A stretch of DNA of 64,000 nucleotides, taken from positions 3,286,001 to 3,350,000 of the forward strand of contig CDPCPM010000247.1 of the NCBI GenBank assembly GCA_976551045.1, given 5' to 3'. Every line of letters begins with the position of its first letter. Within the stretch, counting starts at the first letter, position 1. The notes under the pieces were generated by a model. It was not told the DNA's origin. It ran no database searches and saw only the letters and a list, made by a program, of their open reading frames with translations. This stretch comes from Glaucostegus cemiculus. Taxonomy: Eukaryota. Below are positions 11,860-58,232 of the stretch, one piece after another. The translations under genes and the position numbers were made by a program.

Positions 11860-12200
11860 TATAGTTTAAGTTTGAGTGGTTTAAATTAGAGTGGCAGGGG
11901 GATGGGAACCACAGTGCAGATTGTAGGGTTGAGGGCAAGAAAGATGGTATGACACAAGATTGAAAGGAAGGACAGCAAGGAACAGGCTAAGAAACATGGG
12001 CTAAAATTTGTTACGTTAGGAGTATATGGGTAAGGAGGATGAACAGAGGCCTCAATATGTGAGGGACAAGACTGGCTACTCAATGTTCCTGGTTTCACTC
12101 TTTTAGATGTGATAGAGGGGGGTAAAAGAGGTGGAGGGGTTGCACTACTAGATGGTCACTCATCTATTTGTAGCCTGCACTTAGAGGGTCACATCTTGAG
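11860..12200 (+). mobile_element. CR1 fragment (ORF1/ORF2 junction, internally deleted)
   Basis: Similar to 12895-13260 of the adjacent CR1. Confidence 0.75.
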
Positions 12201-19640: not shown

Positions 19641-21049
19641 AGACTGAACTAGCTTGACTCAAAGGTACAACACTGAATGAAAATTAAAGTGTTGACAGTC
19701 TTGTTCTTGCAGTTGTTGAGCTAAAATCTATAATTACTTTTAACCATTTATGTTTTTTTGGCACAAGATAGATGCTAATTCATATCTGTAAAGATTTCAC
19801 ACCCAGGATTTGCCAATAGTTGATGATTCTGGAACCTTATGCTGGAGCTGTCATTATTTAAGATTTATAAAATGTTGTCATGCTCGTAATTAAAAAGGTA
19901 CTGTTTGCACTTTATGGCTCTGTCATACCAAATCACTGGGATATGCTATAAAGTATCAGTAGTCAAGCTGAGAAGTAGGAATGGGCTGAAACGGTGACTG
20001 ATTTGCCCACTTTGGGCTGTAAAAATAACGTCATCCTCCATCAAATTAATAGCATGTTCCTGGGGAGAGGGAAAGAAGATCACATTACTCAGGAAGACTG
20101 CAGTCTGCAGGCTGGCAACAGAGAGTCATTTGTCTTTTGACCCTGCAGGAGGTTCACTATTGGACATGTACACCCCTTCTGAACAGTGCTGAATTTTAGG
20201 TTTTGCAGAATTATCTTTAGATTTAATTAATCTTCTCTCACACTTTTTAATCTTTTCCTACCCACTGTTCACAGTGAGGCAAACCTATTACTGAATGACT
20301 GTGCTGTCCCCATGTGTTAGGACAGTGAATTTGTTGCGGTCCTTAAGCACAGACTGTTCTCTGGGCTGTTACTGTTGCTTGTTAATTAATGGTAATCATG
20401 GTTAAAATCCATATTATGTGGTTCTCATTTACTAAAAACACAAAACATCAATATATTAGCCTTCAGTTAAACTTCCAGCTGATTTGTACACAAGAGTCTT
20501 TATCAGTGAAAGAATTGCTCAGTTCTTTTAACAATTACATGTGTATCATGTTTCTTTTCAAACCTCTGGCTACTTAGGCTCTAATAAGGCTGTATGAAAG
20601 TTCAGGGGAGGAGATAAGATCCAGTTCAACCAACCAGAGGAAAGTGATTGAAGCTGCATAAGACAAAGACACTGTGTAAGCTCATAGAGGCCCTGTTGTT
20701 AAATGCTTTGTGAAGACCCCTGGGACTGAATGTGCTAACAGCAGTCCTTACGTAATGCATTTGCTGCCGCTGAGATAAACAAGCCTGTGGAATATCTTGG
20801 GCAAATAAGTATATTTAAAAACTGTGCATCACATGAGTTCTGACACACTGTTGCACCAGCTGCTACTGTTAGCCAAGTTAAAACTGAAAATACTGGAAAT
20901 CCTCATCAGGTCAGGCAGCATCTGTGGAAAGAGAAAGTGTTAGAGGTGCAGGAAACTTAATCAAAATTGGGAAGCAGAGAAAACAAGTTAGAAAGAGTGC
21001 ATGTCGGTCTGTTTTCATAAGGATGTGCATTAGAAACACCTTGCAAGAT

Positions 21050-21295: not shown

Positions 21296-22075
21296 TTTAG
21301 GCAAAGCAAAATATTGTTGGGCAGCTATGCTAAGGAGAATCTCCGTTTTGGGGGTTGGGAAGAGATGGTAGGCCCAGCAACAATTTGTGGCTATGAACCA
21401 GAGCTGTGTACACCGATTGTGGCGTTTGATTGGAATGAGTCACTTGGACTGAGAAATAGTGCGTTTCAGAGAAGTGCAGAACCGGACAGCAAGGAGATCT
21501 AGCAATGACTCAACCTGTGGATTATACTGGCCCAGCCCACACAGATCATTGGTCAGGCAGACTTGTAATAAACCTTGTGCCGGTTGCCCTGGAAGCTCAA
21601 AGACAATATGTAAGTTTTATTGCCATAAAACAACCAAATGTAAAGATGACATACACATACAGAACTGGCAGTCTGCTATCCGTCATATTGTTATATGCCC
21701 AGAGCCTGAACTGGATTAGACTCTTTGGAGTATATAAATAGAGATCTGATATCTGCTTCAGATCTCTTTTACCCAATTCACTTGCCTTGAATGCAGCCAC
21801 TACAGCATTGGCACATTCAGAACATCCAGGCATACTTGCAGGGAGCTGTTACTACTACAATAGTAATTAGTTCTTACCTAAATATGGAGTTAATCACAGG
21901 AGTGCTGTTACTGGGATTGCTTCATTTTGCGATTGTTGTTGTATTCTGGTGGTATGCTGATCTCCACATGCACCTGCAGAACATCTCAGAAGGTTTGACA
22001 CTGCAGTGCTCCAAAATCCTTCAACTGGTCTTAGGAGGACTGTAAACAAATCATCACATAAGAAGTATGACCTGA
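21296..22075 (+). pseudogene. Decayed coding-like segment, possibly an env/fusion-glycoprotein remnant of an LTR element
   Basis: Overlapping frameshifted ORFs, including INLVPVALEAQRQYVSFIAIKQPNVKMTYTYRTGSLLSV and a hydrophobic block ELITGVLLLGLLHFAIVVVFWWY. Resemblance to fish LTR-element env proteins is from memory only. Confidence 0.35.
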
Positions 22076-22214
22076 GACAGGACCTGGCTAAAGTAAAATG
22101 GGAGCAGCTGCTAGAGGGGAAAGTAACTTTCAGTAATTGGGAGGCTTTTAAAAGCAAGATATTAAGAGTCAAAGTCAATATGTCCCTGTAAGTGTAAGAA
22201 GCAAAGATGGGTAA
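21789..22214 (+). repeat. 426-bp direct duplication, copy 1
   Basis: Near-identical to 25529-25955 (gaatgcagccactaca...gcaaagatgggtaa). Confidence 0.97.
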
Positions 22215-25200
22215 GTTGTAGGGACCAATGACGTGGATAGGAAGAAGGAGGAGGTCCTGCAAAGAGAGTTAAGGGAATTAGGTGCAAAGTTGAAGGACAG
22301 GACCTACAAGGTTGCAATCTCAAGATTGCTACCAGTACCACGTGCTAGTGAGGCTAGAAATAGGAGGATCATGCAGCTAACTATGTGGCTAAGGAGTTGG
22401 TGCAGGAAGGAGGGCTTCAGGTTTCCTGGATAATTGGGCTTTGTTCCAGGGAAGGTGGGATCTGTCCCAAAGGGACAGTTTGCACCTGAACTGGAGGGGG
22501 ACTAACGTACTTGTGGGTAGGTTTGCTAGTGCTACTCTGGTGGGTTTAAACTAGATTTGCAGGGGGAGGGGACCGGAGTGTTAGAGCAAATAGTGATGAG
22601 GAAAATGGTCATATGAGGTCTGCAGGTATGGACAGAAATCAAAGGTTTGTACATGATGGTAATGTTCTCAGGTTCTATTTCAATGCAAGGAGTATTGTAG
22701 GTAGGGCGGATGAGCTTAGGGCATGGATTGGCACGTGGGATTACGGTGTTATTGCTATTAGTGAGACATGGTTGCAGGAGGGGCAGGACTGGCAGCTTAA
22801 TGTTCCAGGCTTCTGTTGTTTCAGACATGGGGAGGGATGAAGGGGGAGGGATGAAGGGGGAGGAGTGGCATTACTGGTCAGGGAACAGATCACAGCTGTG
22901 CGGAGACAGGTCAGCCCGGAGGGCTCGTCTACTGAGGCCATATGGGTGGAGCTGAGGAACAGGAAAGGTGTGGCCACACTAATAGGGTTGTATTATAGAC
23001 CGCCCAATAGTTAGAGAATTGGAGGAACAAATCTGTAGGGAGATAGCAGACCAATGTAAGAATCAAAGTTGTAATAGTAGGGGATTTTAACTTTCCACAT
23101 ATTGACTGGGACTCCCACACTGCGAAAGGGCTGGATGGCTTGGAATTTGTCAAATGTGTTCAGGAAAGTTTTCTAAATCAATATATAGAGGTACCAACAA
23201 GAGAGAATGCAATACTTGTCTCCTATTAGGGAACCAGGCAGGTCAGGTGACAGAAATATGTGTAGGTGAGCATTTTGGGTTCAGTGATCATAATGCAATT
23301 AGTTTCAAGATAATCATGGATAAGGATAAGTCTAGTCCTCAAGTGGAGGTTCTAAATTGGAGAAAGGCCAATTTTGTGGAAATGAGAAAGGATCTAGGTA
23401 GGGTGGATTGGGATGTTATTTTCTGGTAAGGATGTGCTTAGTAAATGGAAAGCCTTCAAATACAAAATTTTGAGAGTGCAGAGTTTGTATGTTCCTGTCA
23501 GGATTAAAGGCAAAGGTAACAAGCACGGGGAACCTTGGTTTTCAAGGGATATTGGTGAGCTGGTTAAGCAAAAGAGAGGTGTATAGCAGGTATAGGCAAC
23601 TAGGAACGGATGAGGGACTTGAAGAGCATAGGGAATGTAAGAAAATACTAAAAAAGGAAATCAGCAAGGCAAAAAGACATGAGGTTGCTTTGTCAGATAA
23701 TGTGAAGGTAAACCCAAAGGGTTTCTACAGGTATATTAAGAGCAAGAGGATAGTAAGGGACAGAATTGGTCCCCTAGAAGATCAGAGTGGTCGTATATGT
23801 GTGGAGCCTCAGGAGATGGGGGGAGGTCTTAAACAGTTTTTTTGCATCAGTATTTACTCAGGAAACTGACATTGTGGATATGGAAGGAAGGGAAACAAGC
23901 ACTAGTGTCATGGAACATATCGAGATTAAAAAGGAGGTACTTGATGCTTTACAGCGAATAAAGGTAGATAAATCCCCAGGACCTGACAAGATATTTCCTC
24001 GGACCTTGAGAGAGACTAGTGTAGAAACTGCAGGGGCCCTGGCAGATGAATTTAAAATGTCCTTAGCCACGGGTGTGGTGCCGGAGGACTGGAGGGTAGC
24101 TCAAGTTGTTCCATTGTTTAAGAAAGGCTCGAAGAATAAACCAGGTAATTACAGGCCGGTGAGCCTGACATCAGTTGTAGGTAAATTACTGGAATATGTT
24201 CTGAAAGGTAGGACATATAAGTATTTGGACAGCCAAGGGCTGATTAAGGATAGTCAGCATGGCTTTGGGTGAGGTAGATCGTATTTAACGAATCTTGTGG
24301 AGTTTTTTGAGGAGGTCACTAAGAAAGTAGATGAAGGAAAGGCTGTGGATGTTGTCTACATGAACTTTAGTAAGGCCTTTGACAAGGTCCCACATGGGAG
24401 ATTAGCTCAGAAGGTTCAGTCAATGGGTATCCATGGAAAGGTTGTAAACTGGATTCAAAATTGGCTGAGTGGGAGAAGACAGAGAGTGGTTGTGGATGGT
24501 TGTTTCTCAGATTGGAGGCCTGTGACTAGTGGTGTGCCTCAGGGATCTGTGCTGGGCCATTGTTGTATGTTGTATATATCAATGATCTAGATGATCATGT
24601 GATAAATTGGATTAGTAAATTTGTGGATGACACTAAGATTGGAGGTGTAGTGGACAGCGAGGAAGGCTTTCAAAGCTTGCAGTGGGATCTGAACCAAATG
24701 GGAAAAATGGTCCAGAAAATGGCAGATGGAATTTAATGCAGACAAATGTGAGGTGTTGCATTTTGGAAGGACAAATCAAGGGAGGACATACACAGTAAAT
24801 GGTAGGGCACTGAGGAGTGCGGAGGAACAAAGGGATCTGGGAGTTCAGATACATAATTCCCTGAAGGTAGAATCACAGGTAGACAGGGTTGTAAAAAAAA
24901 GGCTTTTGGCATCCTGGCATTTCTAAATCAAAGTATTGAGTTTAGGAGTTGGAATGTTTTGGTGAGGTTGTATAAGTCATTGGTGAGACCAAATTTGGAA
25001 TATTGTGTGCAGTTCTGGTCGCCGAACTACAGGAAGGATGTCAGTAAGATTGAAAGAGTGCAGAGGAGATTTACCAGAATGTTGCCGGTCTTCAGGAGTT
25101 GAGTTACAGGGAGAGATTGAGCAGGTTACGACTTTATTCCTTGGAGCGCAGAAGAATGAGGGGAGATATGATACAGGTTTACAAAATGATGAGGGGCGTA

Positions 25201-25528
25201 GAGTTAATACAAGTAGGCTCTTTCCACCTAGATTTGGAGAGATAAATACAAGAGGACATGGCTTTAGGGTGAAAGGGGAAAGGTTTAAGGGGAACATTAG
25301 GGGGAACTTCTTCACTCAAAGAGTGGTGGGAGTGTGGAATGGCCTGCCATCTGATGTAGTAAATGAGGGCTCACTCTTAAGAGTAATTTGGATAGATACA
25401 TGGATGAGAGAGGTCTGGAGGGTTATGGGCTGGGTGTAGGTAAATGGGACTAGCACAATAATGTTTTGGCACAGACCAGAAGGGCCGAATGGCCTGTTTT
25501 CTTTGCTGTAGTTTTCTGTGGTTCTATG
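22215..25528 (+). mobile_element. CR1 LINE, 5'-truncated within ORF1, complete 3' end
   Basis: Starts at VGTNDVDRKKEEVL. Contains FYFNARSIVGRADEL, KSPGPDKIFPR, FSKAFDKVPH and SGVPQGSVLG. Ends gggccgaatggcctg...ttctgtggttctatg. Confidence 0.95.
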
Positions 25529-25955
25529 GAATGCAGCCACTACAATGTTGGCACATTCAGACCATCCAGGCATATTTGCAGGGAGCTGTTACTACTACAA
25601 TAGTAGTTAGTTCTTACCTAAATATGGAGTTAATCACAGGAGTGCTGTTACTGGGATTGCTTCATTTTGCAATTGTTGTTGTATTCTGGTGGTATGCTGA
25701 TCGCCACATGCACCTGCAGAACATCTCAGAAGGTTTGACACTGCAGTGCTCCAAAATCCTTCAACTGGTTTTAGGAGGACTGTAAACAAATCGTCACGTA
25801 AGAAGTATGACCTAAGACAGGACCTGGCCAAAGTAAAATGGGAGCAGCTGCTAGAGGGGAAAGTAACTTTCAGTAAATGGGAGGCTTGTAAAAGCAAGAT
25901 ATTAAGAGGTCAAAGTCAATATGTCCCTGTAAGTGTAAGAAGCAAAGATGGGTAA
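25529..25955 (+). repeat. 427-bp direct duplication, copy 2
   Basis: Near-identical to 21789-22214. Begins immediately after the CR1 3' tail. Confidence 0.97.
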
Positions 25956-27680
25956 ATTTAGAGAATCTTAGTTAACAAAGGATTTATAAGATTTGATCAG
26001 GGAAAATGCATGTTGGATATAGGAAATTGGCATCACAAGTTCTATTAAGTTTTATGGAGAAGTTTTTTCCCTCAAGTTTTAAAGAGGAAAAAAATACCCC
26101 TGGGCCCTGAAATGACCTTGGCAAGTAGCATTAAGGAGAATTCCAAAATCCTTCTAAGTACAATAGAAGCAAGAGGGTGGCTAAGGAAAGAGTAGGTCCC
26201 CTCAGGTATTCATTGTGCGGAGCCAGGGGACATTGAGCAAGGTTCCAAATGAATACTTTATCAAAATTCACCAAGGAAAAGGATGTGGAAGCATGAAAGT
26301 TCAATGAAGGTTATGCTGATATTGTGGAGCACGTCTGTGTCAAAGGAAGTGGTAGAAATATTGGTGCACATTAGTGTAGATAAATCCCCAGGGTCTAATG
26401 GGATCTATCCTAGAATGGATAAGGGAAATAAGCGATGAGATTTTTTTGGCCACAGGAGACCATCAGAAGACTGGAGGATAGCTAATATTGTCCCCTTATT
26501 CAAAAAGGGAAATAGGAACAAACCTAACAACTTACAGGCCAGTAGTGGCAGGGAAGTTGTTGAAGCAGATTCTGGATGGACAGGATTTATGTTCATGTGG
26601 AAAGACAGATTAATTAGGAGTCAGTGTGGTTTTGTGCACACGGGAGATCGTGTCTCACAAATCTGATTGATTTTCTTCATTACCTCCTCAAAATAAAACT
26701 CAAGGAAGGCAGCATGGTTAACATGTACTTCAGTAAGACATTAGGCAAGCCTTCACATGGTAGGCAGATCAAGAAAAGTTAAGGCACAAGCAAATTCAAG
26801 GCAACTTGGTAAACTGGATTCAGAATTGTCTTGTTGATAGGAGGTAGCGGATACTGTGGATGTTTTTTTTTTCCTTCTCTTTTGAAGTGTAAGTCTGTAA
26901 TGGGGTCAGCACTGAAACTTTTGTTGTTGGTCATATAAATGAATGACTTGATTGAGAACATAGGTGGTTTGATTAGTAAGTTTGCAGAAGAAAATTGATG
27001 GAGTCATAGATAGCAAAAAGGTTGTTTAAAGATATAGTGGGGCAGAGTGGTGGCAGATGAAAGTTAATCTAGGCAAGAGTGAGGTGATGCATTTGGGGAA
27101 GTCAAATTCTGGTAAGAAAGAGAGAGTAAGTGACAGGGACCTTGGGAGTGTTGATGTACAGGAGCCCAGCTGCAAGTTGAAAGCTTGCTGAAAGTGGCAC
27201 CACAGGTGGATAGGGCACTGAAGGCAGCATTCAGCATGTGGGCTTTCACAGGCCGAGTATTAGAAATGGGATGCCATGTTGCCATACAAAATGTCGTTTA
27301 GACCATATTTATAGTATCATGTACAGTTCTAGGTGCCACACTACAGAAAGGATGTGGTAGCAATAGAGAGAGTGCAGAAGAGGATGTGAACATATGGCTG
27401 TAGTAATAAGGAGACATTGGGTAGGTTGGGTTTCCTCTTACTGGAATGTAGGAAGTGACCTTTCAGGACATAGATAGGATAGTTTCTTTGCCAGGGCAAG
27501 GGAGAACTGGAGGGCATAGGTTTAAGGTGAGGGGGGAGAAACTTAAGGGAGATCTGAAGGTTGTTTATCCACACACATGATGAACATTTGGAATGAGCGG
27601 ACAGAGGAGGTGGTGGAGGCAGATATAATTACAATGGTTAAAAGCCACTTGGACAGGCAAGGAGTAGAGGAATATGAGTG
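25816..27680 (+). mobile_element. Older degenerate CR1 ORF2 (host of the 22215-25528 insertion; its first ~140 bp are also at 22076-22214)
   Basis: DLAKVKWEQLLEGK start, DKSPG and EDWRIANIVPLFKKG remnants, C-terminal RGHRFKV-like region. Confidence 0.85.
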
Positions 27681-30842: not shown

Positions 30843-30971
30843 TCATAGCAAGTCATTATCAGTGCATCCACCACCAACACCATGACGAAACTCCTGAAGG
30901 TTTGAGACTCCATGGAAGTGAACAAATGCACCAGCCACCACCAGAACATGGAACAGCTGATGAGAGTGAAA
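30843..30971 (-). CDS. ADIPOR2: Adiponectin receptor 2, last coding exon (129 nt including stop)
   Basis: tttttacag acceptor, then FHSHQLFHVLVVAGAFVHFHGVSNLQEFRHGVGGGCTDNDLL*. Contains the HxxxH zinc motif. Confidence 0.97.
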   Translation of the reverse strand, partial: FHSHQLFHVLVVAGAFVHFHGVSNLQEFRHGVGGGCTDNDLL

Positions 30972-31283
30972 CTGTAAAAACAAAAGCAAGATCAAAAGGT
31001 CAACATCCAACAATGGAAACCAAAAACCAATGCTTCCATTTCATCAACCTGCACAACAATTTTTAACAGAGCTTTTTTTCACAGAAACACAATTTCTGGA
31101 GTGCATCCAGCATATCTAAACAGCACTGTTCAGTTTAAAAATTGTCTTCTGGATGTGTACAATTCTCTTTCTGTACAACAGTGACCCTTTAATATTTAAG
31201 TAGCAAATTTTCCAGTCTTCTAAGCATTTATAAAGCTTGAAAAAAATTAAAGTTTGAAATAGAAAAGGCTACTGATTACTTAC

Positions 31284-31477
31284 CCAAATGTCACACTTTC
31301 CAGGGAAGAAACGCTCAGGGATACGGGCAGCATATAAGGCAGCTCCTGTGATATACAATGCTGCCATCAAGAACAACCAGCCAATCTGTCCAATAGTAGC
31401 AGCCCTGAAAAATCCTTCTGATATCATAAAGTGCAAGGTAGGTACAACTCCACTCAGCCCCAATCCCACAAAAACTC
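31284..31477 (-). CDS. ADIPOR2: Adiponectin receptor 2, coding exon (194 nt)
   Basis: AG/GT boundaries. GVFVGLGLSGVVPTLHF...AARIPERFFPGKCDIW. Confidence 0.98.
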
Positions 31478-31989
31478 CTAGAAATAAATAGATGGGAGAC
31501 AATGAGTCACACCAAAAATGCAAAATTATCAAGCAGGAACAGTTTTCTTGAAACCCCACCATCAACATTTCTGTATTTAAGGAATGACCTCAAATACCAG
31601 ATGCCTGGCATCTATCCCAGAAGTATTATTCAATTTAAAGTAGTATCCTTTGTATTAAAACAAGTGGTACAGAATTATTACATATAACTCAGACTCTTCT
31701 GCAGATTGTTCCAAGTGTCAATCCTTATTTACACTTACAGGTCTGTCTTTCTGTCTCTATCTCAATATCCTAAATAGAGATACATGATCTCAGAATTAAT
31801 GTCTTACTTCCAATTTAGAACAAGTTTTTTCATTTAAAGAACTTATTCACAACCACGTTGAATACAAGTTATGATCTTATGAGATTTTCATAATATAGAA
31901 ACAAAACTGATTCCAGGGGTGTGCCAATTAACATAAACTTACCAATTAAGGTAATGATTTTTAAAATGTGGTAGTTGATTCAATTTGGA

Positions 31990-33270
31990 CACAAGTTTGC
32001 TGCTCTGAAAATATTCTCACTGACAACCTCATGGAATTGAAATGAAATTACTGACCTAGTTAGGAGATTGGTAGAGTACAGGGACATATGAAATGCAAGA
32101 AAGTGAACAGTTGTGCCCTACAAAAGATCTGCTGGAGCCTCAGCTATTCATTATACTCATGATTTCAATAATGTCAGCAAAGAGTCATATATCAAAGTGT
32201 GACAATGACACAAATAAGAACACAAAAACAGGAGTAGGCAATAAGGCCTTCAAGATTATGGTCTCAATTACTCTTTCCTGCCTGATTCTCAAACAACCAA
32301 CTCCCATCGGGTCCAAAAATCTAAGTCACCCTTCAACATATTTAACAATTTGGCTTATGCCTTTCTCTGGGCTAGACAATTGCAAAGCTTCACAACTCTC
32401 TAAGAAGGGGAGAAAACAACTAAGTTTAAAATGGGAATCCCTTCCCCCCCCCCCCCCCCCCCGAGGCTTTTCCCTAATAGTTTCATATTCCTCCATCTAG
32501 GAGAAAATCCTCAACATCATCTCCATTTTGCACACATCAGCAAGATCAACTCTCATTCTACTAAACTCCAGAGAGCATAGGTTCAATTCACTCAATCTTA
32601 CCTCCGGACTTTTCCAATGGATGGATAATGTATAGAAATTAAATATAAAAATCTTACTTCTAGCCTGTAGGGAATGTTAGTGTACAATTACCCTAACAAC
32701 TGTGCACTGTAATTACTTGGCACTTTAGAAGTTCACATCAAGTTTACAAATCAAATCAATTTACAGAGAACCACAGCGAACCAATTAAATAGCATTACTA
32801 AATTAAGGCTTGTGATAATAAAGAAACTTCATTTACATCAATGCTTTGTTTTATGGTATTGCCAGGTGTCAGTAATAGTAATAAAACCAGAATACTGGTG
32901 TGCAGCATTAATGAACAAGATGCAGTCAAATGTTTAGGTCACCTGCATTCCAGAAATATTACATACTTAGTAAAAGAATACTACACAGGATAAAGCAAGA
33001 TTTAGAGGTAGTTCAAATGTAATTGGTAGACGAATTGGAGATTTTTAAGAGTTTCATCCAAAGGATCACAGATGTCTAGAACTTGCTGCCTGATAAAGAG
33101 TGGTAGCTGCAGAAACTCTCTTAAATATTTAAAAATACTTGGATGCGTACTTGAGCTGTGACCTGCAGGGCAATGAACCTAGCTCTGGATGGTGATATCG
33201 AGAGTAACTCTTTCTCAACTATCACAGAAATGGGCTAAATGACCTCCCTATGTCATAGATTTTCCATGAT
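31990..33270. mobile_element. Cluster of old CR1 fragments in both orientations
   Basis: RT remnant near 32000-32210, minus-strand 3' tail 32215-32600, plus-strand 3' end 32950-33270. Confidence 0.6.
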
Positions 33271-33698
33271 TCAAAAACTGTAAAGGATTTTGTAACATTA
33301 ATTGAATAGCAAATATCTGCAGGTGCTAGAAATACTTTAGGTCAACGATTCTTCATCTGAACTGATTAAGTATCATTTTCTCTCCACAGGTGATGCCCGA
33401 CTTGCTGAATATCTCCAGCATTCTCCATTTTCACTTTGTTACATTAGACTAGTTTATTCAAGCTTCCACTATACATTAACGAGCACTGTTCTAAATGCAA
33501 TTAAAAAAATAGTTATACATTATCTTGCATATCTTGCACCATGGCATGGTAAAGAAACTAATCACACCCACGAAAACCTGGGCACACTTTCTTGAAGATT
33601 CCAGTAAATAACAGAAGATGTAAAGCTATGTACTCTCAAGCATACATCAACAAGAAATATTACACAAAAAGAATGGATGTAAGCGCCAATTAACTTAC

Positions 33699-33886
33699 CA
33701 GCTCGTACACCTCTGTACTGTGGTGTTGCAAAATAGTCCCACTGGGAAACTATAATTGCTGTGATACCAAGTACACAGACAACAAGCAAGTAAATGAAAC
33801 ATGGCTGGGGGTTACAGTAGAAGGAGTAATACAACCATGGCACAAAGCTACCCATTATTAGAAGTGCTATGCCAGAATAGTCCAAC
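33699..33886 (-). CDS. ADIPOR2: Adiponectin receptor 2, coding exon (188 nt)
   Basis: AG/GT boundaries. LDYSGIALLIMGSFVPWLYYSFYCNPQPCFIYL...FATPQYRGVRA. Confidence 0.98.
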
Positions 33887-35925
33887 CTGAGGAAACAGAA
33901 AGGATATCATTTAGGTTCACTGCAGCAATCCAGAACTCTCATTACAGTATTTATAATATTGTAAATCCAATACATGGAAAGGAAAACAAAATTTATTCAT
34001 ATAATTAAAAAAGAAAATCTTTAGATTCAACCATTACATTTTGTAGTAAATACTTATTCAGATCTGGTTTCTAAGGCTAATTCAATTTATTGAAGCAATT
34101 TTAACAATTTTTGAGCTGGATACTTCAGCTTAGCTCACAAAAAGAGCAAAATGATTACAAGATGCTGATGTCATGCCCATTTTTCTCAACTCGGTCTTTC
34201 TCTTCAACATACAAATGTACACAAAAAAATTATTAGTTCTCCAGATTAAATTATCACTGAACATAATCAGTTAACAGGAATATTGATCTGCTAGACAAAA
34301 CCTTGAATTATTTTGCTCAGTTTTGTTTATTTTTTTCCAGTAGCAAAGTCTAGCCTGCTGGGCATGTCCCACAACATTTTTATTAAAAACACATTACACA
34401 GTCAAAGTAGCATAATGTGCTTCTAACTGCTACATCTTATTCATTTGGTGTCAGCCATTATTAACCTTTTCATACTATTCTCCACCCCCCCCCCACCCCC
34501 ACCCCAACAAACATCATCAGTTACTGAAAATAAACTTGCTTTCTTCCCCAACCGCTCCCAGTTCTAACAATGGGTCTAGGATCCAAAATGTTAACTGATT
34601 CTCCTCCAGAGACGCTGCCTGACCTGCAGGGTGTTTGTAGCATTTTCTGTTTTTATTTCAGATTTCTAACATCTACAGTTTTTTAAATTTTCATTCACAA
34701 ACTAAAGAATTTGTTTCACAGTGAATAATGGAAAGGAATTGTGTAAAAGGAATTGTATATACCTGGTTGAACCTGATATTTAATAAAAACTTGAAAAAGC
34801 CATATTTCATATGAAAAATTATGCACCAGCTGGGCAAAACCAAGATACTAGTGGCATGCATCTACCTTAAATCCTGGACAAAGGGAATAAAAATTCTTAA
34901 AAATAATAATCATTTGACTTTTCTTTAGTTCACAATTCATAGCAATACAATAGCACTGAACATTCTCAGGGAGAGGCTTTTGCCAATCAAGATTAGCTTT
35001 GAGGAACTAATCCAGACCTAATCCTTTCTTCTGCTCTTCCATACGATCTCCAATGTTTGAGATATCTATCCTCCAAACTATATAAAGCACAATGATCTGG
35101 GCCTCAAATACTCAAAGGGCTCCAGTTATGTATTAATAAATAAAAACAATAAATCATAATTTAACTAGCTGACGATCTGACCATAGACTTTTGCGAAAAG
35201 TTTATGTACTTTGCATTTAAATGTAGCTGTTTAAGTTTCTACTGCCCTTTTCTAATACGGACTAATAGACAGTTCAGATGTTTTTGAATACAGGCTAACA
35301 CAAAGGGCTATCAAACCATCTCAATATAAAAGCACTGTTAAAAACCAAAATATGCCATAGGGTTGGAAAAGACAGCTTGCCCAAGCTTTATTCCACATTT
35401 TTGCCTACACTTTGTTGTAATTATTTGGGACCAAAATTCTGCAGTTATGACTAAATCAACTACCTTGTAGCTCCTGGCACCTACAAAAATTAAGGCTGGG
35501 AGATTAGCTAAAACCATTTAAATGTTTGTCAAGACCATCCAAAAACTATTGACTTTACAGCTAAAACGGATTCTGATGGCTCAATAAACTAGCACTTGAT
35601 GAATGAAGATAGCCCACCATTATCAATCAAGAAGAAAAACAAAATCACACAATGGATCTCTGGGATACAGCTACCTCCAATTAAAAATACAAATCAAGGT
35701 AGAAAGATGTATAAAATATATTAAAAAATTAATGGCACAAACCATTCAACTTATTTTTACCACCTATTGTTCTAATGCCCAAGGGATAATATAAGCAGGT
35801 TAAGCTGCAAATAAATATGAAGACCCCATCTGGTAAAACTTACCAGAATCAGCAGCAGCAAGGAACTGGAACAAGTTTTATTTTTGGGCAAGGTCTTTAG
35901 ATCAACACTATTCTAAATACCTCCC

Positions 35926-36225
35926 AATGCTCAAGACAAGAGGGCATGGCTCTAAGGTTATGGGTGAGAAGTTCAGGGGAGATGTCAGAGGAAGGTTTTT
36001 TACCCAGAGAGTGGTTGGTGCATGGAATATGCTACCTGGGGTGGTGGTGAAGGCTGATATGTTGGACAGGTTCAAGAGATTGTTGGATAGGCATATGGAA
36101 GAATGTGAGATAGAGGGATATATGGGAGGAAGGGGCTAGATAGTGTTAGGTGTGGTTTGATGGATGGCACAATATGGTGGGCCGAAGGGCCTGTGTTGTG
36201 CTGTATTGTTCAATGTTCTATATTC
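35926..36225 (+). mobile_element. Short 5'-truncated CR1 (same subfamily as 43108-45072)
   Basis: TRGHGSKV...FFTQRVVGAWNMLP, with tail ctgtattgttcaatgttctatattcta. Confidence 0.92.
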
Positions 36226-36699
36226 TACATCTCAGTCATACAGCTAAAATAGTGAAAAATGTAACTAAAATTTCTTGAGCTTGTACACCCAATTATTGGA
36301 TTTTTACAAGCAGCATTTTCATACCAGGCAACACAAGTTCTTCAAAGCTAATATTGTAGTACTTCACTGAAAGAACACAAACACAATTCCTCAGCGTTAT
36401 TGATGACAAGGTATTATTCAGGAATGTCACATTTCTACTGCCAAACCTGATCAAATGCAGACTGTGGTGATCAGTATCCAGGTGATGACTGTTTAAGGGA
36501 AAACTCAGATCATTGTGGAAGTTGTGATTTTTGAAACAGATGTTGAGATCACAAGGTTAATTTAGGTAGACAAAAATGGTCAACAGGTTCATAATATATA
36601 GATTAAACCACATTCTAAATAGTAAATTAAAATCAATAACAGGTTATCAGCAGGTTACCAGTTTACCTTAAAGTTCTTATTTTACAAATGGTTACTTAC

Positions 36700-36886
36700 T
36701 TGGAAAATACACGTGAAACATTTTCTGAATGGCAGTAGAATGTGTGAAACAACCAGGAGAAACACAGGCAGAGAATGGCCCCAAGGAAAAATGCCCCAAA
36801 TACAACTTTCTCTTGCACCGGGGCCACAAATGATATGTTCGGCCTGAACATGTAGAAAATTCCAAGACCCAAGAAGAAAAGACAAC
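36700..36886 (-). CDS. ADIPOR2: Adiponectin receptor 2, coding exon (187 nt)
   Basis: AG/GT boundaries. GCLFFLGLGIFYMFRPNISFVAPVQEKVVFG...FHTFYCHSENVSRVFSK. YMFRPNISF is diagnostic of R2 rather than R1. Confidence 0.98.
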
Positions 36887-36964
36887 CTAAAAAAAAATGA
36901 ATATATACAACAAACTTAAGTAAAGGTTGACACCCAGAAATAAACAAGGAATATAGCCTTTTTT

Positions 36965-39190
36965 TCTATTCAATGCAAATATTATTACAGGTAAAGTGGA
37001 CAAACTTTAGGCCTGGATTAGTACATGGAACTACGATGTTATAACCATTACAGTGACTTGGTTGAGGGAAGGGTAGGACTGGCAGCTCAACATTCCAGGG
37101 TTCAGATGTTTCAGAAGTGGTGGAGGTGGAGGTGGAGGAGTTGCACTATTGATCAGAGAGAATGTCACAACAGCACTTAGAGAAGACATCTTGGAGGGCT
37201 CATCCAGTGAAGCAATACGAATAAAGATTAGGAATAAGAAAGGGGCAATAACTATGATAAAGGCCTCCCAATAGCCAGCGGGAGATAGAAGAACAGATTT
37301 GTGGGCAGCTTATGTGAAGATGTAATGACAAAAAAGTAGCTGTAGTGGGCGACTTTAATTTCCCCAATACTGACCTGGGCTCCCTTAGTACCAGAGGTTT
37401 AGATGGGGCAGAATTTGTTAGGTACATCCAGGAGGGTTTATTGACGCCGCATGTAGCTAATTCAACCAGGGAGGGGGCCATACTAGACCTTGTATTATGA
37501 AATGAGCCTGGCTATGTGATCAGAGTTTCAGTGGGAGAGCACTTTGAGAACAGTGATCATAACTCCGTAAGTTTTCAGATATTTATGGATGAAGATGAGA
37601 CCAAGGTGGAGGACATGGAGGATTGCGAGATGAGGGGAGAATATGCTAATATTCTAGGGCTCGTTGATCTCAAGGAAGGAGTGGTGTTGGGGGCCTTGAA
37701 GAACATCAAGATGAACATCAAATTCCCCAGAGCCTAATGGGTTCCATCCCAAGTAATTGAGAGAGGCAAGACAGGAAATTGCTGAGGCCCTGAGAGAGAT
37801 CTTTGTATCCTCAGTAGCCACAGGGGAGGCCTAGTGGACTAGAGAATAGCTAACGTTGTTCCTTTGTTTAAGGGCAATACAGACAAACCTGGAAGTTGTA
37901 GGCTGATGAGCCTTACATCAGTGGCAGGGAAATTACTGAACATTCTTAGGGATAGGATCTACTCACATCTGGAAAAGCAGAGAGATTAGGGAAACTCAGC
38001 ATAGGTTTGTGCAGGCAGGTCACACCTTACAAACTTGATTGAGTTTTTTTTTTGAGGAGGTGATGAAGATGATAGATGAAGGTAGGGCAGTTGATGTTGT
38101 ATACATGAACTTTAGTAAAGCTTTCAACAAGGTCTGTCATGGTAGGATGATCTGGGAGATTAAGGCATATGGAAATCATGGAGACTTATCTGATTGGATT
38201 CAAAAATGGTTTGGCTGTAGAAGATGGAGGGTAGTGGCGGAGAGGCATTATTCAGACTGGAGATCTGTGACCAGTGGTGTTCCGCAAGGATCAGTGCTGG
38301 GACCTCTTGTTTATGGTATATATTTAGACAAACAGTGTATATGGGCTGATTAGCAAGTCTGCAGACACACAAAAATTTGGCAGAGTTGCGGATAGTGAGG
38401 AAGATTGTCAAAGGATTCAGCAGTATATAGATCAGTTGGAAATGCAGGCAGGAAAGTAACAGATGGGATTAATTTTCCAACAAGTACAAGGTGATGCATT
38501 TTGGGAACATATGGGTGGAAGAAATACAGTATATGGTAGGGCACTAAGGAATGCTGATGAACAGAGGGACATGGTGTTCATGTCCCTGGTTCCCTAAATG
38601 TGGCCACACAGGTTGATAGGGTGGTGAAGGCGGCGCATGGCATGCTTGCCTTCATAGGTTGAAGCATAGAATATAAAAGTTGGGATGTTATGTTGTAAAT
38701 TTGCAAAACACTGGTTAAATGTCACTTGGAGTATTGTGTGCAGTTCTGATTGCCACACTATGGGAAGGATGCGGTTGTGCTGGAAAGAGTGCAGAGGAGA
38801 TTCACCAGGATGCTGCCTGGATTGGAGGACTTTAGTTATGGGATGGGCTTGATTTCCCTGGAGGGAAGGAAGCCAAGGGGTGACCTGATATACAAGGTTA
38901 TGAGAGGCATAGGTAGAGTAGATAGTCAGGATTGTTTTACCATCGCAGTGGTATGAAAAACAAGTGTGCTTAGGCTTAAGGTGAGAAAGAGTTTTTAAGG
39001 GAATTTGAAGGGAAAGTTTTTTTTTGCAGAGAGTGGTTGACATCTGAAACTCGCTGTCAGAAGTGATGGTGGAATGAGATACAATCACTATATTTAGACA
39101 GGCACTTAAAAGGCCAGACAGAGAAGGATATAGACCTAATGCAGGCAAATGGAATCAGTGTAGATGGGCAAAAAGGCCACCAAAGACACG
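36965..39190 (+). mobile_element. Degenerate CR1 ORF2 with a large internal deletion near 37600
   Basis: APE motifs (GDFNFPN, SDHNSV), RT motifs (FSKAFNKV, SGVPQGSVLGP) and C-terminus. Confidence 0.92.
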
Positions 39191-39238
39191 TATGACTCAA
39201 CTCCAGTACTATGCTAGATCCATAAAATGTCTGGTTAG

Positions 39239-40516
39239 CACCTTATCAAACGCCTTGCTAAAATCCATATACACTACATCTACCGATCTCCCTTCATCGA
39301 CGTTCTTGGTCACTTCTTCAAAAAATTCTATAAGACTCGTCAGACAGGACCTGCCCTTGACAAAACCATGCTGACTATTTCTAATCATGCCATACTTCTC
39401 CAAGTGTTCCATGCGAGGCTTATGGAGAAGGTGAGGAGACACGGGATCCAGGGGGACATTGCGATGTGGATTCAGAATTGGCTGGCCCACAGAAGACAAA
39501 GAGTGGTTCTGGAAGGGTCGTATTCTGAGTGGAGGTCGGTGACCTCCGGTGTACCTCAGGATCTGTGCTGGGACCCTTGCTGTTTGTCATCTTTATAAAT
39601 GACCTGGATGAGGAAGTGGAGGGGTGGGTTAGCAAGTTTGCTGACGGCACGAAGGTTTGGAGGGCTGTCAGAGGCTACAGAGGGACATAGATAGGATGCA
39701 GAGTTGGGCTGAGAAATGGCAGATGGAGTTCAACCCAGATAAATGTGAAGTGGTTCATTTTGGTAGGTTGAACAGGTTGGCAGAATATAGAATTAATGGT
39801 AAGACTCTTGGCAGTGTGGAGGATCAGAGGGATCTTGGGGTCCAAGTCCATAGGATGCTCAAGGTGGCTGCGCAGGTTGACTCCGTGGTTAGGAAGGCGT
39901 ATGGTGTATTGTCCTTCATCAGTCGAGGGATTGAATTTAGGAGTAGGGAGGTAATGCTTCAGTTGTATAGGTCCCTGGTCGGACCCCACCTGGAGTATTG
40001 TGTTCAGTTCTGGTCGCCTCACTACAGGAAGGATGTGGAAGCTATAGAGAGGGTGCAGAGGTGGTTTACAAGGATGCTGCCTGGAATGAGGAGCATGCCT
40101 TATGACAGCAGGTTGCGGGAACACGGCCTTTTCTCCTTGGAGAGAAGGAGGATGAGGGGGGACCTGATAGAGGTATATAAGATGTTGAGAGGTATGGATA
40201 GGGTAGATAGTGGGAGGCTTTTCCCCAGGGCTGAAATGGTGGCCACAAGAGGACATAGGTTTAAGGTGCTGGGGGGAAGATATAGGGGAGATGTTAGGGG
40301 TAAGTTTTATACTCAGAGAGTGGTGAGTGCGTGGAATGGGCTGCCGGAGATGGTGGTGGAGGCGGATACGTTAGGGTCTTTCAAGAGACTGTTGGATAGG
40401 TACATGGAGGTAAATAAGATAGAAGGCTATGGGTAAGCCTAATAGTGTAGGGATATGTTTGGCACAGCTTTGTGGGCCAAAGGGCCTGAATTGTGCTGTA
40501 GGTATCTATGTTCTAT
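39239..40516 (+). mobile_element. Young CR1 with inverted 5' segment (39239-39411 minus, 39408-40516 plus)
   Basis: The minus segment encodes EHLEKYGMIRNSQHGF...FSKAFDKV. The plus segment resumes HARLMEKVRRHGI and includes a 259-aa ORF and 3' tail. Confidence 0.92.
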
Positions 40517-40524
40517 TATCTGCA

Positions 40525-40835
40525 GGTATGCACAATGGCATAGCTGGTAGAGCTGATGCCTCACAGCACCAGAGATCTGGGTTCAACCCTGACTTTGACT
40601 GCTGCCTGTGTGGTATTTGCATATTCTCCGTGATTTCATGATTTCCCTATATCTCCTGGACACCTCCCACATCCAAAAGGCATGTGGATTGGTAAGTTAA
40701 TTGGCCACTATAAATTGCCCCTAGTGTGTAGATGATTAGTAAAATATGGGGGGAGTTGATGTGAATGTGGAAGAATGAATGAGATTAGTGTAAACATATG
40801 GTTGATGACCTGTGTGGACTTAGCTGTACCTCTGC
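40525..40835 (+). mobile_element. Degenerate tRNA-derived V-SINE
   Basis: Head gctggtagagctgatgcctcacagcaccagagatctgggttcaaccct, core ctcccacatccaaaag, and taaattgcccctagtgtgtag. Confidence 0.75.
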
Positions 40836-41258
40836 ATGACCCTCAAGGTGAAATTTTCAAAAATGTTACATACTAGAATGCTCAGTTTTCACTAACTGTG
40901 CAGTCCAATAAATATCACTATCAAAAAAGAAAATGCAGTATTCCCCTGAGCCATCGATTAAATCAAGTAGTCACTTATTGAATTGCATTTCTCTGCATAC
41001 CCACCAATCAATTTTACAAGCTTTAATATTGTAATATAGATTTTCCATGCCACAAATTAATAGGTCATCAAATTTGAACATCTTTTACAAATGCCAGTGG
41101 TTAAGTCATACTTGAAACACACGTATGCTGCCAATTCATTTACCAATCTGGAAAAACCTGCAATAAACTGTCAATATCATTAGATTTTGCTGCCTCAAAG
41201 GTGACATGCCAGTGGTTAGCAGATTATGCAAAGTCAAGTGCTTTTCTGTATACCATAC

Positions 41259-41430
41259 CTATGAGATGTGTCCAAATGTTCAAGGTTTCTGTATGAATCC
41301 TAAAGATGCTTCTTAAGCAAGCACGAAAAGATGGCATTGGTGGCCTGTGACCATGCAGGAGGTAGTCATTATCCTTCAGCCAATCAGGCAGCACATCATG
41401 GGGAATGACCCGCCATCGCCCTTCCCATAC
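41259..41430 (-). CDS. ADIPOR2: Adiponectin receptor 2, coding exon (172 nt)
   Basis: AG/GT boundaries. VWEGRWRVIPHDVLPDWLKDNDYLLHGHRPPMPSFRACLRSIFRIHTETLNIWTHLI. Confidence 0.98.
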
Positions 41431-42659
41431 CTGTAATAAGTACAACTTTAATAGATACCAGAATACTTCTAATTTCTCACTGGGATTATGCAAAGAATAT
41501 TTCAACTGAACAGGTTATAGAACCTGCCTGATTTCCAATTCACTGAAATAAAACAAACGAAAATTCAGGACATGAGTTACAATTGCAAGGTTAGAAGTTA
41601 CCTCCATACATTTTAAAATAGTTTTCCTCCTGCTGTGTCTACTAACTAATACTAAAAGAAAATCATTAGTCAAACAGACCAATAGTAATTCAAAACAGAT
41701 TGGGAAAAAATGGCTACCAGTTTATCATCAATGAAACTATAGCATTTTCTGTAAAGATATTAGCACAAAGTACATATATCTAAAATATATTTGTATGCTT
41801 AGTAATTATATTGTGGGAGTTTGGAAGATCTTTTCCTGCTGTTTATTTGGAAGTGTACACGTTTCTAGATTCTAAGAATGAGAGCAGTTGTTCCAGTTTT
41901 GGATTCCTGTCTCTAATAGCAAAGTGAACTACATAATGGAATTTTATGTGGTAATCAATGGAAGATATGTTACAACACAATTGGTTCTAGGGGGAAAAAA
42001 TGGCAGATTTCAGGACAGAAGTCACTACACCCTGATGGAATGCAATCTAGATCATTGATGGAGAGTGAATAGCAGGGTCAATTTTTCAATTCTTCTTACA
42101 TTTGCAACATATAGCAACCTGCAAAAGCAGCAATACAAGCAATTGTTCAGAAGGCAGGACATAAAGTCATAGAATTTATAACCAGTTAGTGCCTTAGCTT
42201 TTGAGTAACCTCAGAAATCTGTTTTATTAAGATTACTGATGATTTGGAAATGAGTCAGTTAATCAATTTTGGGTGCAAAAGGGCAGAATAATCTGAAAGG
42301 TCAAGTCCATAAACAAAACACCAGCAGGAGTTTAATTTTGGAGGAATCTTGGCATTGAACTACATTCAACAGGAGTGTTTTCCACAATTATTTTGTGTGG
42401 AGTAAGCAGAGTTTTATTCTTCAATAGGCTTTGTGCTCATGATACTTATTCTTTCAATCTAAACAGAATTAATGGCGGGGAAACATTTATGTCACGCATA
42501 GGCCAGATCCACAGTTCATCCAGGAATGGAACATGTGCATTTTTGGGGGGAGGAAGGGGGCGAGGTAATCGTTTCCAAGTTTTTGGATTTGTGGGTGAAA
42601 TGGTCATTAACAGTGAAGCCTTGGGGACATATTAAATTTATGCCCCCAAGAAATCGCAA

Positions 42660-55232: not shown

Positions 55233-57527
55233 ATATGGAACAGTACAGCACAGGAACAGACCCTTCAGCCCACAATGTTGTGCTGAACTAATTAAACTAG
55301 TAATTAAATGCCTAACTAAACTAATCGCTTCTGCCTACACAATATCCATATCCCTCCATTCTCTGCACATTCACGTGCCAATCTAAGAGCCTCTTTAAAC
55401 ATCTCTATCGTATTTGCTTCCACCACCATCCCTTTTGCAGGGCATTCCAGGAACCCATCACTGTGTAAAAATAACTTGTCCCACATACCTCCTTTGAACT
55501 TACCCCTCTCACCTTAAATGCGTGCCCTCTATTATTAGATATTTCAGCCCCAGGGAAAACTTACCAACTGTCTACTCTATGCCTCTCATAATCCTCTAGC
55601 AGGTCTCCCCTCAGCCTCCCCCGCTCCAGAGAAAACAACCCAAATTTGTCCAACCTCTCCTTATAGCACATGACTGCTAATCCAGGCAGCATCATGGTAA
55701 ACTTCTTCTGCACCCCTCCAAAGCCACCACATCCTTCCTATAATGGAGCGACCAGAACTGAATGCAATACTGCAGATGCGGCCTAATTAGAGTTTATAAA
55801 GCTGCAACTTCCCAACTCTTGAATTCAGTGCCTCGACTAATAAAGGCAAGCATTCCACTATGCCTTCTTTACCACTCTATCAATCCATGTAGCTACTTTC
55901 TTGGACTTGGACCCCAAGATTCCTCTGTACATCAACACAGTTAAGGTCTCGCCATTAACAGCGTACTGCCCCAATACATTTGATCTTCCAAAGCACAACA
56001 CTTCACATTTGGCCAGATTAAACTCCATCTGCCATTCCTCCACTCGTATCAGCAACTCATCTATACCCAACTGTATCCTTTGGTAATCTTCTGCACGGTC
56101 CACACACTACGGATCTTTCTATCATTTGTGAACTTACTAACCTACCCATCCACATTTTCATCTGGGTCATTTACACATATACACACAGAGCAGAAGACCA
56201 AGTACAGACCTCTGCAGAAGACCACTAGTCAGGGACGTCCAGCCAGAACAAGTCCCATCGATCACTACCCTCTGTCTTCAATGGGCAAGCCAATTCTGAA
56301 TCCAAAGGGTCAAGCCACTGTGGATCCCATGATCTTAATCTTCTCGATGAACCTACCATAAGAGACCTAATCAAACACCTTACTAAAATCCATGTCGACC
56401 ACATCCACAGCTCTATCTTCATCAATCACCTTTGTCAACTTCTCAAAATACTCAATCAAGTCAGTAAAACACAACTTGCCCTGCACAAAGCCATGCTGAC
56501 CATCCCTAATAAGACATGCTTTTCCAATTGCTCATAAATCCTATCCCTAAGAATCGTCTTCAATAGCTTCCGTCCCACTGATGTGAGACTCACCAGTCTA
56601 TAGTTTCCAGGATTATCCCCATTTCCCTTCTTGCATAATGGAACATCAGCTACTCAACAGTTCTCAGGGACCTCGGCTGTGGCTAGGGAGCACAAGATCT
56701 TGGTCAAGGCCCCACAAATCTCATCCTTTGCCTCTCTCAATAACCTGGGGTATATCCCATCAGGCCCTGGGGACATATACACCTTAAGAGACCCAATACT
56801 ACCTCCTTCTTTATTTCAAAATGGCCTAGCATATTAGCGCACTCTGCACTGATCTCCCTATCCTCCACATCCTTCTCGTTGATAAATACTGATGCAATGT
56901 ACTCATTTAGGACCTCTCCCACATCCTCCACTTCCAAGCACATGTTCTGTCCTTTATCCTTAGTGGTCCTATCCTCTCTCTAGTTATCCTCTTACTCTTG
57001 ATGTATGTACAGAATGCCTTATGATTCTCCTTAATCCTACTTGCCAAGGACTTTTCATGGCCCATCCTAGCTCTCCTAATTCCCTTCTTGAATTTTCTAG
57101 CTTCTTTATAATCCTCAAGGGGTCTGTTTGATTTTAGCTTCCTAAACTTTACATTCACTTCCTTTTTCTTCTTGACTAAATTCACCAGCTTTCTCGAGAT
57201 CCAAGGTTCCCTTACATTGCCAGCCTTGTCCTTCCTTCTTACTAGAGCATACCTGCCCTGTACTCTAGGTGGTTGGTCTTTAAACACCATCCACGTCAGA
57301 TATGGACTAACCAAAAAACAGCTGTTCCCAATCAACTTTCCCTAGTTCCTGCCCAATACTCTTGTAATTTGCCCTGCTCCAATTTAATACTCTCCCGCAA
57401 GGTCCATATTTATCCTAATTTATAGCTATCTTAAACCTTAAGGAGTTTTGGTCACTGTTCCCCAACTGTTCTCCCACTGAAAGGTCAGTTACCTGGCCAG
57501 GCTTATTTCCCAACACCAGATCCAGTA
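55233..57527 (-). mobile_element. Degenerate CR1 ORF2 with 3' tail
   Basis: VREPWISR...KENHKAFCTYIKSKR, EVLNEYIASVF and WQMEFNLAKCEVL. 3' tail near 55233-55290. Confidence 0.93.
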
Positions 57528-57938: not shown

Positions 57939-58232
57939 TGAAAATCTTGAGCACTCAATTTGGCTTCCTTGCACACTTTTGAGACTTCAATTATGAAGCT
58001 GCACTGATCTCCCTATCCTCCACGTCCTTCTCATTGGTAAATACTGATGCAATGTACTCATTTAGGACCTCTCCCACATCCTCCACTTCCTAGCACATGT
58101 TCTGTCCTTCATCCTTAGTGGTCCTATCCTCTCCCTAGTTATCCTCTTGCTCTTGATGTATGTATGTATGAAAATCTTGAGCACTCAATTTGGCCTCCTT
58201 GCATACTTTTGAGACTTCAATTATGAAGCTGC
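57939..58232 (+). repeat. 64-bp direct duplication (57939-58002 / 58169-58232) enclosing a 166-bp copy of 56844-57009
   Basis: Direct sequence comparison. Confidence 0.93.

Follow-up and report, generated by a model that had tools for sequence, protein, structure and literature searches.

How does a CR1 retrotransposon come to lie between two nearly identical copies of 429 bp of host DNA? The question is raised by a locus of Glaucostegus cemiculus, which we analysed together with its surroundings in a window of 64 kb, the whole stretch of DNA considered here. Target-site duplications (TSDs) of CR1-clade elements are reported to peak at ~3-5 bp (PMC4245944, citing Ichiyanagi and Okada 2008) and those of inherited human L1 elements are nearly all <30 bp, only canonical sizes being listed in a review (PMC4805530), so that a large TSD has a low prior at such a locus. 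One genome survey gathered TSDs of 5-30 bp only (PMC2912911).

Results

A direct repeat around a single CR1

Self-alignment of the window revealed two directly repeated copies on the + strand, copy 1 at 21789..22217 (429 bp) and copy 2 at 25529..25958 (430 bp), aligned over 430 columns with 96.05% identity. They differ by 16 substitutions at 429 paired sites and by one 1-bp indel, a base of copy 2 that copy 1 is missing. The near-identical repeat described in an earlier note on this DNA is therefore real, but the ends given there (22214 and 25955) fall 3 nt short. Twelve of the 16 differences are transitions (p=0.0008 against 1/3), 5 are of CpG type, and derived states are present in copy 1 and in copy 2 alike. 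This pair is the sole self-match of >90% identity and >170 bp in the window, where the unit has no third match. When the two flanks of each of 13 CR1 copies were aligned locally, the score was 377 at this element and at most 14 at the other 12, the ends of the copies having been set by eye and the 5' ends of old copies being uncertain. Both junctions of the insert are sharp to ~1 nt.

The repeated unit is chimeric, with ~270 bp of non-CR1 DNA followed by the first ~150 bp (previously put at ~140 bp) of a much older CR1, in the form of a truncated ORF2 start. This old ORF2 (25812..27672, + strand) carries 21 frameshifts and 8 stops, with an implied divergence of ~21%. Its start is found at ~22050-22070 in copy 1 and at ~25800-25812 in copy 2; it breaks off where copy 1 stops and continues, to ~27670, only after copy 2. 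That the start of the old CR1 lies in the unit and the rest only beyond copy 2 supports reading the unit as target DNA rather than as an LTR, in line with the earlier note. The nesting also lets the empty site be read with no need for an outgroup and supports a single copy of the unit there, the single-copy status having been searched within the 64 kb. Homology-driven joining of the incoming cDNA to the resident old CR1 was considered and rejected, since the two elements break in different reading frames, the young one in ORF1, the old one in ORF2.

The copies enclose one collinear, 5'-truncated LINE of 3,311 bp (22218..25528, + strand), provisionally labelled CR1 from its anatomy. As the earlier note had it, a truncated 5' end adjoins copy 1 and an intact 3' tail adjoins copy 2. 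The element is cut inside ORF1, and the remnant (22218..22545, + strand, one frameshift) begins at the very first base of the insert, 22218, in comparison with P0074 and P0075. It corresponds to the C-terminal part of a GDSL/SGNH esterase-like domain: the Pfam match to Lipase_GDSL_2 (E=0.0024) is under the curated cut-off, and the assignment to the ORF1 esterase of CR1-clade LINEs counts the identity to ray proteins, 75% to a Hemitrygon protein and 70-75% to ray proteins with PF13472. The ORF2 remnant (22679..25450, + strand) contains, in this order, an APE endonuclease and a reverse transcriptase, with 12-13 frameshifts, depending on the reference, and 1 stop. RVT_1 was recognised with E=1.3e-9 and Exo_endo_phos weakly, with E=0.006, on the fragment given; amino acid identity to proteins with both domains is 70-76%. 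The 3' end (25466..25528, + strand) combines the conserved hairpin motif with about two repeats of the tail, shares at most 1 nt with copy 2 at the junction, and has neither poly(A) nor LTR. The authentic tail ends at 25528, and six further CR1 ends in the window share this motif and tail. The predicted fold of the hairpin was no more stable than that of shuffled sequences (z=-0.84).

Age of the repeat and of the insert

The copies of the repeat have diverged by 16/429 pairwise, that is 1.9% per copy (CI 1.1-3.0). In the younger CR1, 11 of 225 reference-invariant codons are changed, which corresponds to 2.3% (CI 1.1-4.1), and another reference set gave 8 of 151. A comparison of the two ages had been suggested as a check; the substitution clocks agree, at 1.9% against 1.8-2.9%, with a ratio of CR1 to repeat of 0.96-1.55 (p=0.20-1.0) whose 95% limits of 0.3-3.3, a factor of ~3, permit the CR1 to be up to ~3 times older than the repeat or half its age. 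One stop is seen in the CR1, against 2.0 expected at 2% and 4.9 at 5%.

The indels do not fit the same age. ORF2 of the insert has 13 frameshifts in 869 codons, and its frameshifts per invariant-codon change are 3.65 times those of 8 other ORF2 copies (z=2.76, p=0.006, a post hoc test). The repeat pair has 1 indel (p=0.064 against the frameshift count of the CR1), so that an indel clock would put the CR1 older than the repeat. A more slippage-prone sequence found no support as the cause, since homopolymer and dinucleotide densities resemble those in three younger copies. With the strictest reference set the changed codons also fall unevenly on the two halves of the element, 0/67 in the 5' half against 11/158 in the 3' half (p=0.037), whereas two looser sets gave p=0.35-0.40.

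Gene context

The window also carries the last coding exons of ADIPOR2 (30846..41514, - strand), the duplication lying ~5 kb beyond the stop codon. An 84-codon frame is kept in both copies of the unit; it has no Pfam match, no hit among 1 candidate from a 5.8-billion set and none among 1.84 billion representatives, and we take it to be a chance frame rather than an exon or gene. A frame scan covered 134 of the 185 open frames of at least 42 codons outside masked repeats and below 30.8 kb, the 51 others starting below 7,969, and found no match for frames in the unit. In the same scan one FHA_2 hit under the cut-off was recorded at 19979. Rfam gave 0 matches between 20.5 and 28.5 kb. The description of the duplication as being on the scale of an exon thus holds for its size, but no exon content was detected in the unit.

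A second duplication in the window

Separate from the main event, a 64-bp direct repeat (57939-58002 and 58169-58232) surrounds a 166-bp insert at 57939..58232. The insert was copied from a neighbouring old CR1, the donor (56844-57009) lying 1.15 kb away, and shares a private frameshift and an F-to-I change with it. The junctions show microhomologies of 4 nt and ~2 nt. Divergences of 7/166 for the insert and 2/64 for the repeat match that of the main repeat (homogeneity p=0.92), and this second insertion is a non-retrotransposition event of the same age as the main duplication. It resembles the repair-mediated captures reported in PMC2671141 in its donor at <5 kb, the lack of a tail, the microhomology or filler at the junctions and the presence of a TSD. 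Its size, 166 bp, is close to the published mean of 162, whereas its TSD of 64 exceeds the 4-21 nt reported there; to the 3.3-kb main insert the same model is a poor fit.

Discussion

Origin of the duplication

The probable explanation is a target-primed CR1 insertion in which the 5' end of the element became attached to DNA ending 429 bp downstream, that is, a large TSD. The direct repeat adjoins both ends of one LINE copy, the insert stops exactly at the CR1 tail, which supports an origin as an RNA copy because it ends where the RNA 3' tail does, and the clean truncation right on copy 1 also counts for target priming, as do, within their wide limits, the matching substitution ages. The bottom strand would have been opened at 21788/21789, where the junction is seen, to serve as primer on the RNA tail; reverse transcription then ran for 3,311 nt, as the extent of the insert attests, before halting inside ORF1. 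In place of a second nick a few bases off, the partner of the cDNA end may then have been a top-strand end at 22217. Such an end could have come from a distant nick on the same chromatid, the intervening 429 bp being unwound and filled in, or from the sister chromatid, at a broken or replicating site. Copies and CR1 have since decayed neutrally, by ~2% each, and what is left downstream of ADIPOR2 most likely has no function. The frameshift excess, the wide age limits, the 0/67 against 11/158 split and the 58-kb event, which shows this geometry although it lacks a CR1 3' end, count against this reading.

Several other routes could produce repeated flanks. DNA-templated repair, by synthesis-dependent strand annealing (SDSA) or replication template switching, might have used a decayed CR1 at another locus as template and re-entered the target 429 bp upstream of its departure, with no reverse transcription at the locus; a clear case on a small scale is seen at 58 kb, and a dead donor could have passed on its frameshifts. 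We consider this unlikely: a DNA copy has no cause to stop exactly at the tail, extra substitutions from a dead donor are not in excess, the published captures average 162 bp with a maximum of 619 bp (PMC2671141), and the window is without a donor of >70% identity over a long stretch. The insert does not combine the unique donor at <5 kb, short length and arbitrary ends of repair-mediated duplications. Unequal crossover between two CR1s of the same subfamily that had landed on different haplotypes, at sites 429 bp from each other, would give a chimeric CR1 with the intervening DNA present twice, hence the exact structure, authentic tail and 5' truncation included, and the uneven decay of the two halves is a weak hint in its direction. 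It is distinctly improbable, as it would need two insertions of one orientation and subfamily within 0.43 kb to co-segregate, presumably a rare situation, and the difference between halves disappears with the looser reference sets; moreover, the ORF1 remnant has 6/51 changes and the frameshifts number 7 and 6 across the halves. PMC5932611 deals with double insertions at the same site and is no test of this route.

The clock limits also permit a CR1 half as old as the repeat, as expected if a 429-bp tandem duplication came first and the CR1 landed later on its seam. Both junctions match the repeat ends to ~1 nt, however, a chance landing on the seam would claim only about a few in 860 positions given an insertion into the pair, and the point estimates put the CR1 at equal or greater age, so that this order of events is very improbable. 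Equally little weight falls on an error of assembly, in which two haplotypes, or reads crossing the CR1, would have been wrongly joined. The element is indel-rich, as in poorly polished sequence, and large apparent TSDs in short reads, a different type of data, were chimeras in 10/10 checked cases (PMC4805530). Indel error is not general, the youngest CR1 of the window being free of frameshifts over 591 codons, and the copy differences look biological in their transition and CpG bias and their derived states on both sides. A divergence of 3.7% is, besides, high for two alleles. That the unit is an LTR, or a dispersed terminal repeat of a composite element, is scarcely credible even though 430-bp direct repeats of 96% identity around an RT-coding body have the outline of an LTR element. 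LTRs follow the TG...CA rule, and this unit is without the terminal CA; the interior is CR1 ORF1 and ORF2 with a LINE tail rather than gag, pol and integrase, and the unit is not element-specific, carrying an unrelated old CR1 fragment that extends outside it and lacking a third match in the window.

Comparison with known systems

The earlier note gave a few to ~20 bp as the normal TSD of target-primed reverse transcription, but LINE TSDs of hundreds to thousands of bp have been published. L1 TSDs of >100 bp accompany up to 10% of HeLa insertions and reach 5.3 kb in NER-deficient cells (PMC5223499, where Gilbert 2002/2005 are cited for large TSDs of engineered L1). The engineered elements described there are likewise 5'-truncated LINEs with an intact 3' end between target copies of hundreds of bp; they are de novo cell-line events, whereas the present element is of the CR1 clade, apparently inherited and aged by ~2%. 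A 1,228-bp TSD was reported for 1/25 insertions of zebrafish ZfL2-2 in wild-type chicken DT40 cells (PMC2666801); this too is a non-L1 LINE with tail repeats and a long TSD, but of the L2 clade and in cultured cells of a foreign host. Tandem duplications of 1-10 kb associated with L1 have been interpreted as large TSDs (bioRxiv 2024.12.14.628481), and cancer duplications bridged by L1 (PMC7058536; bioRxiv 2024.12.14.628481) share the retroelement at a head-to-tail seam and fit sister-chromatid or break-induced-replication models, as reported in these sources, but are somatic and span 1 kb to 22.6 Mb. Ordinary CR1 insertions have the same 5' truncation, hairpin with short-repeat tail and scant junction homology, and differ in their TSD of a few bp (PMC4245944) against 429 bp here. 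A young CR1 at 60.9-62.8 kb of the window splits its host without a long repeat. In the literature searched we found no inherited large TSD of the CR1 clade, although long CR1 or L2 TSDs may be listed in supplementary insertion tables.

Significance

Large TSDs are usually viewed as outcomes of cell lines or tumours and have seldom been documented as inherited, and the repeats they leave are expected to recombine out (PMC5223499). This aged, apparently inherited CR1 suggests that a large TSD can pass through the germline and persist despite the expected loss. As a single locus without detected gene content it changes little by itself. By the logic of the nested CR1, long TSDs could be counted cheaply across the CR1-rich genomes of sharks and rays. 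It is a speculative and unlikely extension that, in a ray-like lineage, germline CR1 insertions and DNA captures are often finished by repair of the replication-restart type, duplicating tens to hundreds of bases and slipping at short repeats. Were this true, the two same-age duplications within 64 kb and the frameshift excess of the CR1 would reflect one pathway or episode; exon-sized copies would commonly arise through long flanking duplications, which TSD surveys capped at 30 bp are unable to see.

Structure of the duplication and of its insert

The unit, about 429 bp of host DNA, lies on both sides of a single young CR1 LINE, as copy 1 (21789-22217) and copy 2 (25529-25958). Alignment of the copies over 430 columns gave 96.05% identity, with one 1-bp gap and 16 substitutions at 429 paired sites; the repeat described in an earlier note as a giant target-site duplication (TSD) is real and was well described. 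In a self-comparison of the window, this pair was the sole match above 90% identity and longer than 170 bp. When the 3' flank of each of 13 CR1 copies, with ends set by eye, was aligned to at most 3 kb upstream of its 5' end, the copy at 22218-25528 scored 377 versus 10-14 for the 12 others, and its flanking repeat far exceeds chance expectation. The differences between the copies are biological in kind, since transitions predominate (12/16, p=0.0008), five substitutions are of CpG type and derived states are found in both copies. Pfam, protein-database and open-frame searches detected no coding exon in the unit, and Rfam no RNA family.

The insert (22218-25528, 3,311 bp), which we take to be a CR1 from its anatomy, lies about 5 kb beyond the stop codon of ADIPOR2 (minus strand). 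Its first base is the start of a frameshift-aware alignment to two ray proteins, within the esterase-like ORF1 domain. ORF2 (22679-25450) is collinear, contains reverse transcriptase and endonuclease regions and shares 70-76% amino-acid identity with the best references; the closest named protein relatives are from Mobula, Hypanus and Hemitrygon, and a ray is thus the probable host. The 3' end carries a hairpin motif and tail common to six other CR1 ends in the window. At most one base is shared at the junction with copy 2, and at most about one base at the 5' junction matches the expected upstream codon.

Over its final ~150 bp the unit consists of the beginning of ORF2 of a much older CR1 (21 frameshifts, 8 stops, implied divergence ~21%), which breaks off where copy 1 ends and resumes after copy 2, to ~27670. 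Because this element continues only past copy 2, the empty site was probably ordinary target DNA with one copy of the unit, in agreement with the earlier proposal of pre-existing target DNA.

Age and decay

The age of the CR1 was estimated by counting which of the codons that related ORF2 proteins hold constant have changed in it. Changed codons numbered 8/151 with 40 references; with 18 closer references, four settings gave 11/225, 5/130, 15/279 and 22/356, corresponding to 1.8-2.9% per site. The earlier note had expected this age to match that of the unit, which is 1.9% per copy (CI 1.1-3.0); the ratios (0.96-1.55, 95% limits 0.28-3.29) do not differ from 1, and the ages agree only to within a factor of about 3. 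ORF2 has one in-frame stop (expected: 2.0 at 2%, 4.9 at 5%).

The CR1 carries 13 frameshifts in 869 ORF2 codons and one further in ORF1, as well as a 14-bp tandem repeat and losses that keep the frame. Scaled to changed invariant codons, its frameshifts are 3.65 times as frequent as in the 8 other ORF2 copies pooled (p=0.006 in a post hoc test). In three young copies, 3 frameshifts fall within 1,548 codons, and the unit pair has one indel (p=0.064 versus the CR1 indel rate). By inspection, most events add or remove one short-repeat unit; denser slippage-prone sites than in the younger copies were not found. Under the strictest settings, changed invariant codons number 0/67 in the 5' half and 11/158 in the 3' half (p=0.037), a difference absent under looser settings (p=0.35-0.40).

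Other elements in the window

At least 13 CR1-like copies occur on both strands; for the seven that were dated, implied divergences range from ~0.4% to ~21%. A very young copy (60920-62823) has neither a frameshift nor a stop in 591 codons, and one change in 132 invariant codons. It sits within an older CR1 on the minus strand, lacks a long flanking repeat, and provides a control inside the window as well as an indication that CR1s were recently active. In another young copy (39239-40516) a 5' inversion of the twin-priming pattern is seen, with ORF2 residues 529-585 encoded on the minus strand (39409-39239) and residues ~587-934 following at once on the plus strand. Such 5' inversions are reported mostly for human L1 and not for the other LINEs tested (PMC4245944).

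Older internal repeats (11878-12144 and 12885-13218, 76-80%), ahead of and within a CR1 at 12-15.8 kb, are possibly a second truncated CR1 piece, and an old local direct repeat joins 641-795 and 939-1097 (78% over 159 columns). Four coding exons of ADIPOR2 were located on the minus strand (30846-41514), the one at 33.7-33.9 kb being closer to human ADIPOR2 than to ADIPOR1. A 53-codon frame at 19979-20137 (plus strand), one of 134 scanned, has a weak FHA_2 match below the cut-off (E=0.0032), probably by chance.

A second event is found at 57939-58232, where a 64-bp direct repeat (57939-58002 and 58169-58232) surrounds a 166-bp insert. This insert is 95.8% identical to an old CR1 1.15 kb away (donor 56844-57009) and at most 80% to other CR1 copies. 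It is a local templated capture, as indicated by the donor identity, the donor's private frameshift, the lack of a CR1 3' end and junctions with 4-nt and ~2-nt microhomology plus a TGTA expansion. It fits repair-mediated duplication as described in PMC2671141, except for its longer TSD. Its divergences match those of the main repeat (p=0.92, ~2% age). The event is proof that such geometry can form in the window without canonical retrotransposition.

Origin of the large duplication

The insert behaves like a known LINE outcome and shows features of the large-TSD class, namely a direct repeat against both ends of one LINE copy and an end at the CR1 tail. A large TSD is most likely; its production by target-primed reverse transcription is the best reading and a probable one. 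Around the observed junctions, insert extent and decay, reverse transcription would have started at a putative nick on the unit's left edge and copied the 3,311 nt, and the cDNA end would presumably have joined a top-strand end lying 429 bp downstream, supplied by a distant second nick or by a sister-chromatid or restarted-fork end. The frameshift excess, the strict-setting difference between halves and the second event each count against a simple form of this reading.

DNA-templated copying of a CR1 is an unlikely source, but the least improbable of the rivals; target-primed insertion is preferred mainly because the insert stops exactly at the CR1 tail. Unequal crossover between two neighbouring CR1 insertions would yield an identical product and is given a still smaller chance. 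We consider very unlikely both a CR1 landing at the joint of a pre-existing tandem duplication and an assembly artefact, the latter being opposed by the biological kind of the copy differences. That the unit is an LTR is the most improbable of all, and is ruled out on local evidence by the old CR1 to which its end belongs.

Long L1 TSDs are documented: above 100 bp in at most 10% of HeLa insertions and up to 5.3 kb in NER-deficient cells (PMC5223499). Tumours carry L1-bridged tandem duplications that range from 1-10 kb (bioRxiv 2024.12.14.628481) to 22.6 Mb (PMC7058536). Zebrafish ZfL2-2 produced a 1,228-bp TSD in 1/25 wild-type DT40 insertions (PMC2666801). TSD size peaks at ~3-5 bp for CR1- and L2-clade elements (PMC4245944), human inherited L1 TSDs are almost all below 30 bp (PMC4805530), and one human L1 survey gathered 5-30 bp only (PMC2912911). 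Homology-flanked insertions form a class in a vertebrate-wide structural-variant preprint, whose available text makes no mention of long CR1 TSDs (bioRxiv 2026.06.26.733778). No inherited CR1-clade TSD above 100 bp was found in a literature search that did not cover the main CR1 junction surveys or the majority of other subscription papers. The locus is unlikely to be the trace of a broader repair pathway in rays; it represents an aged, apparently germline CR1 example of a probable large TSD.
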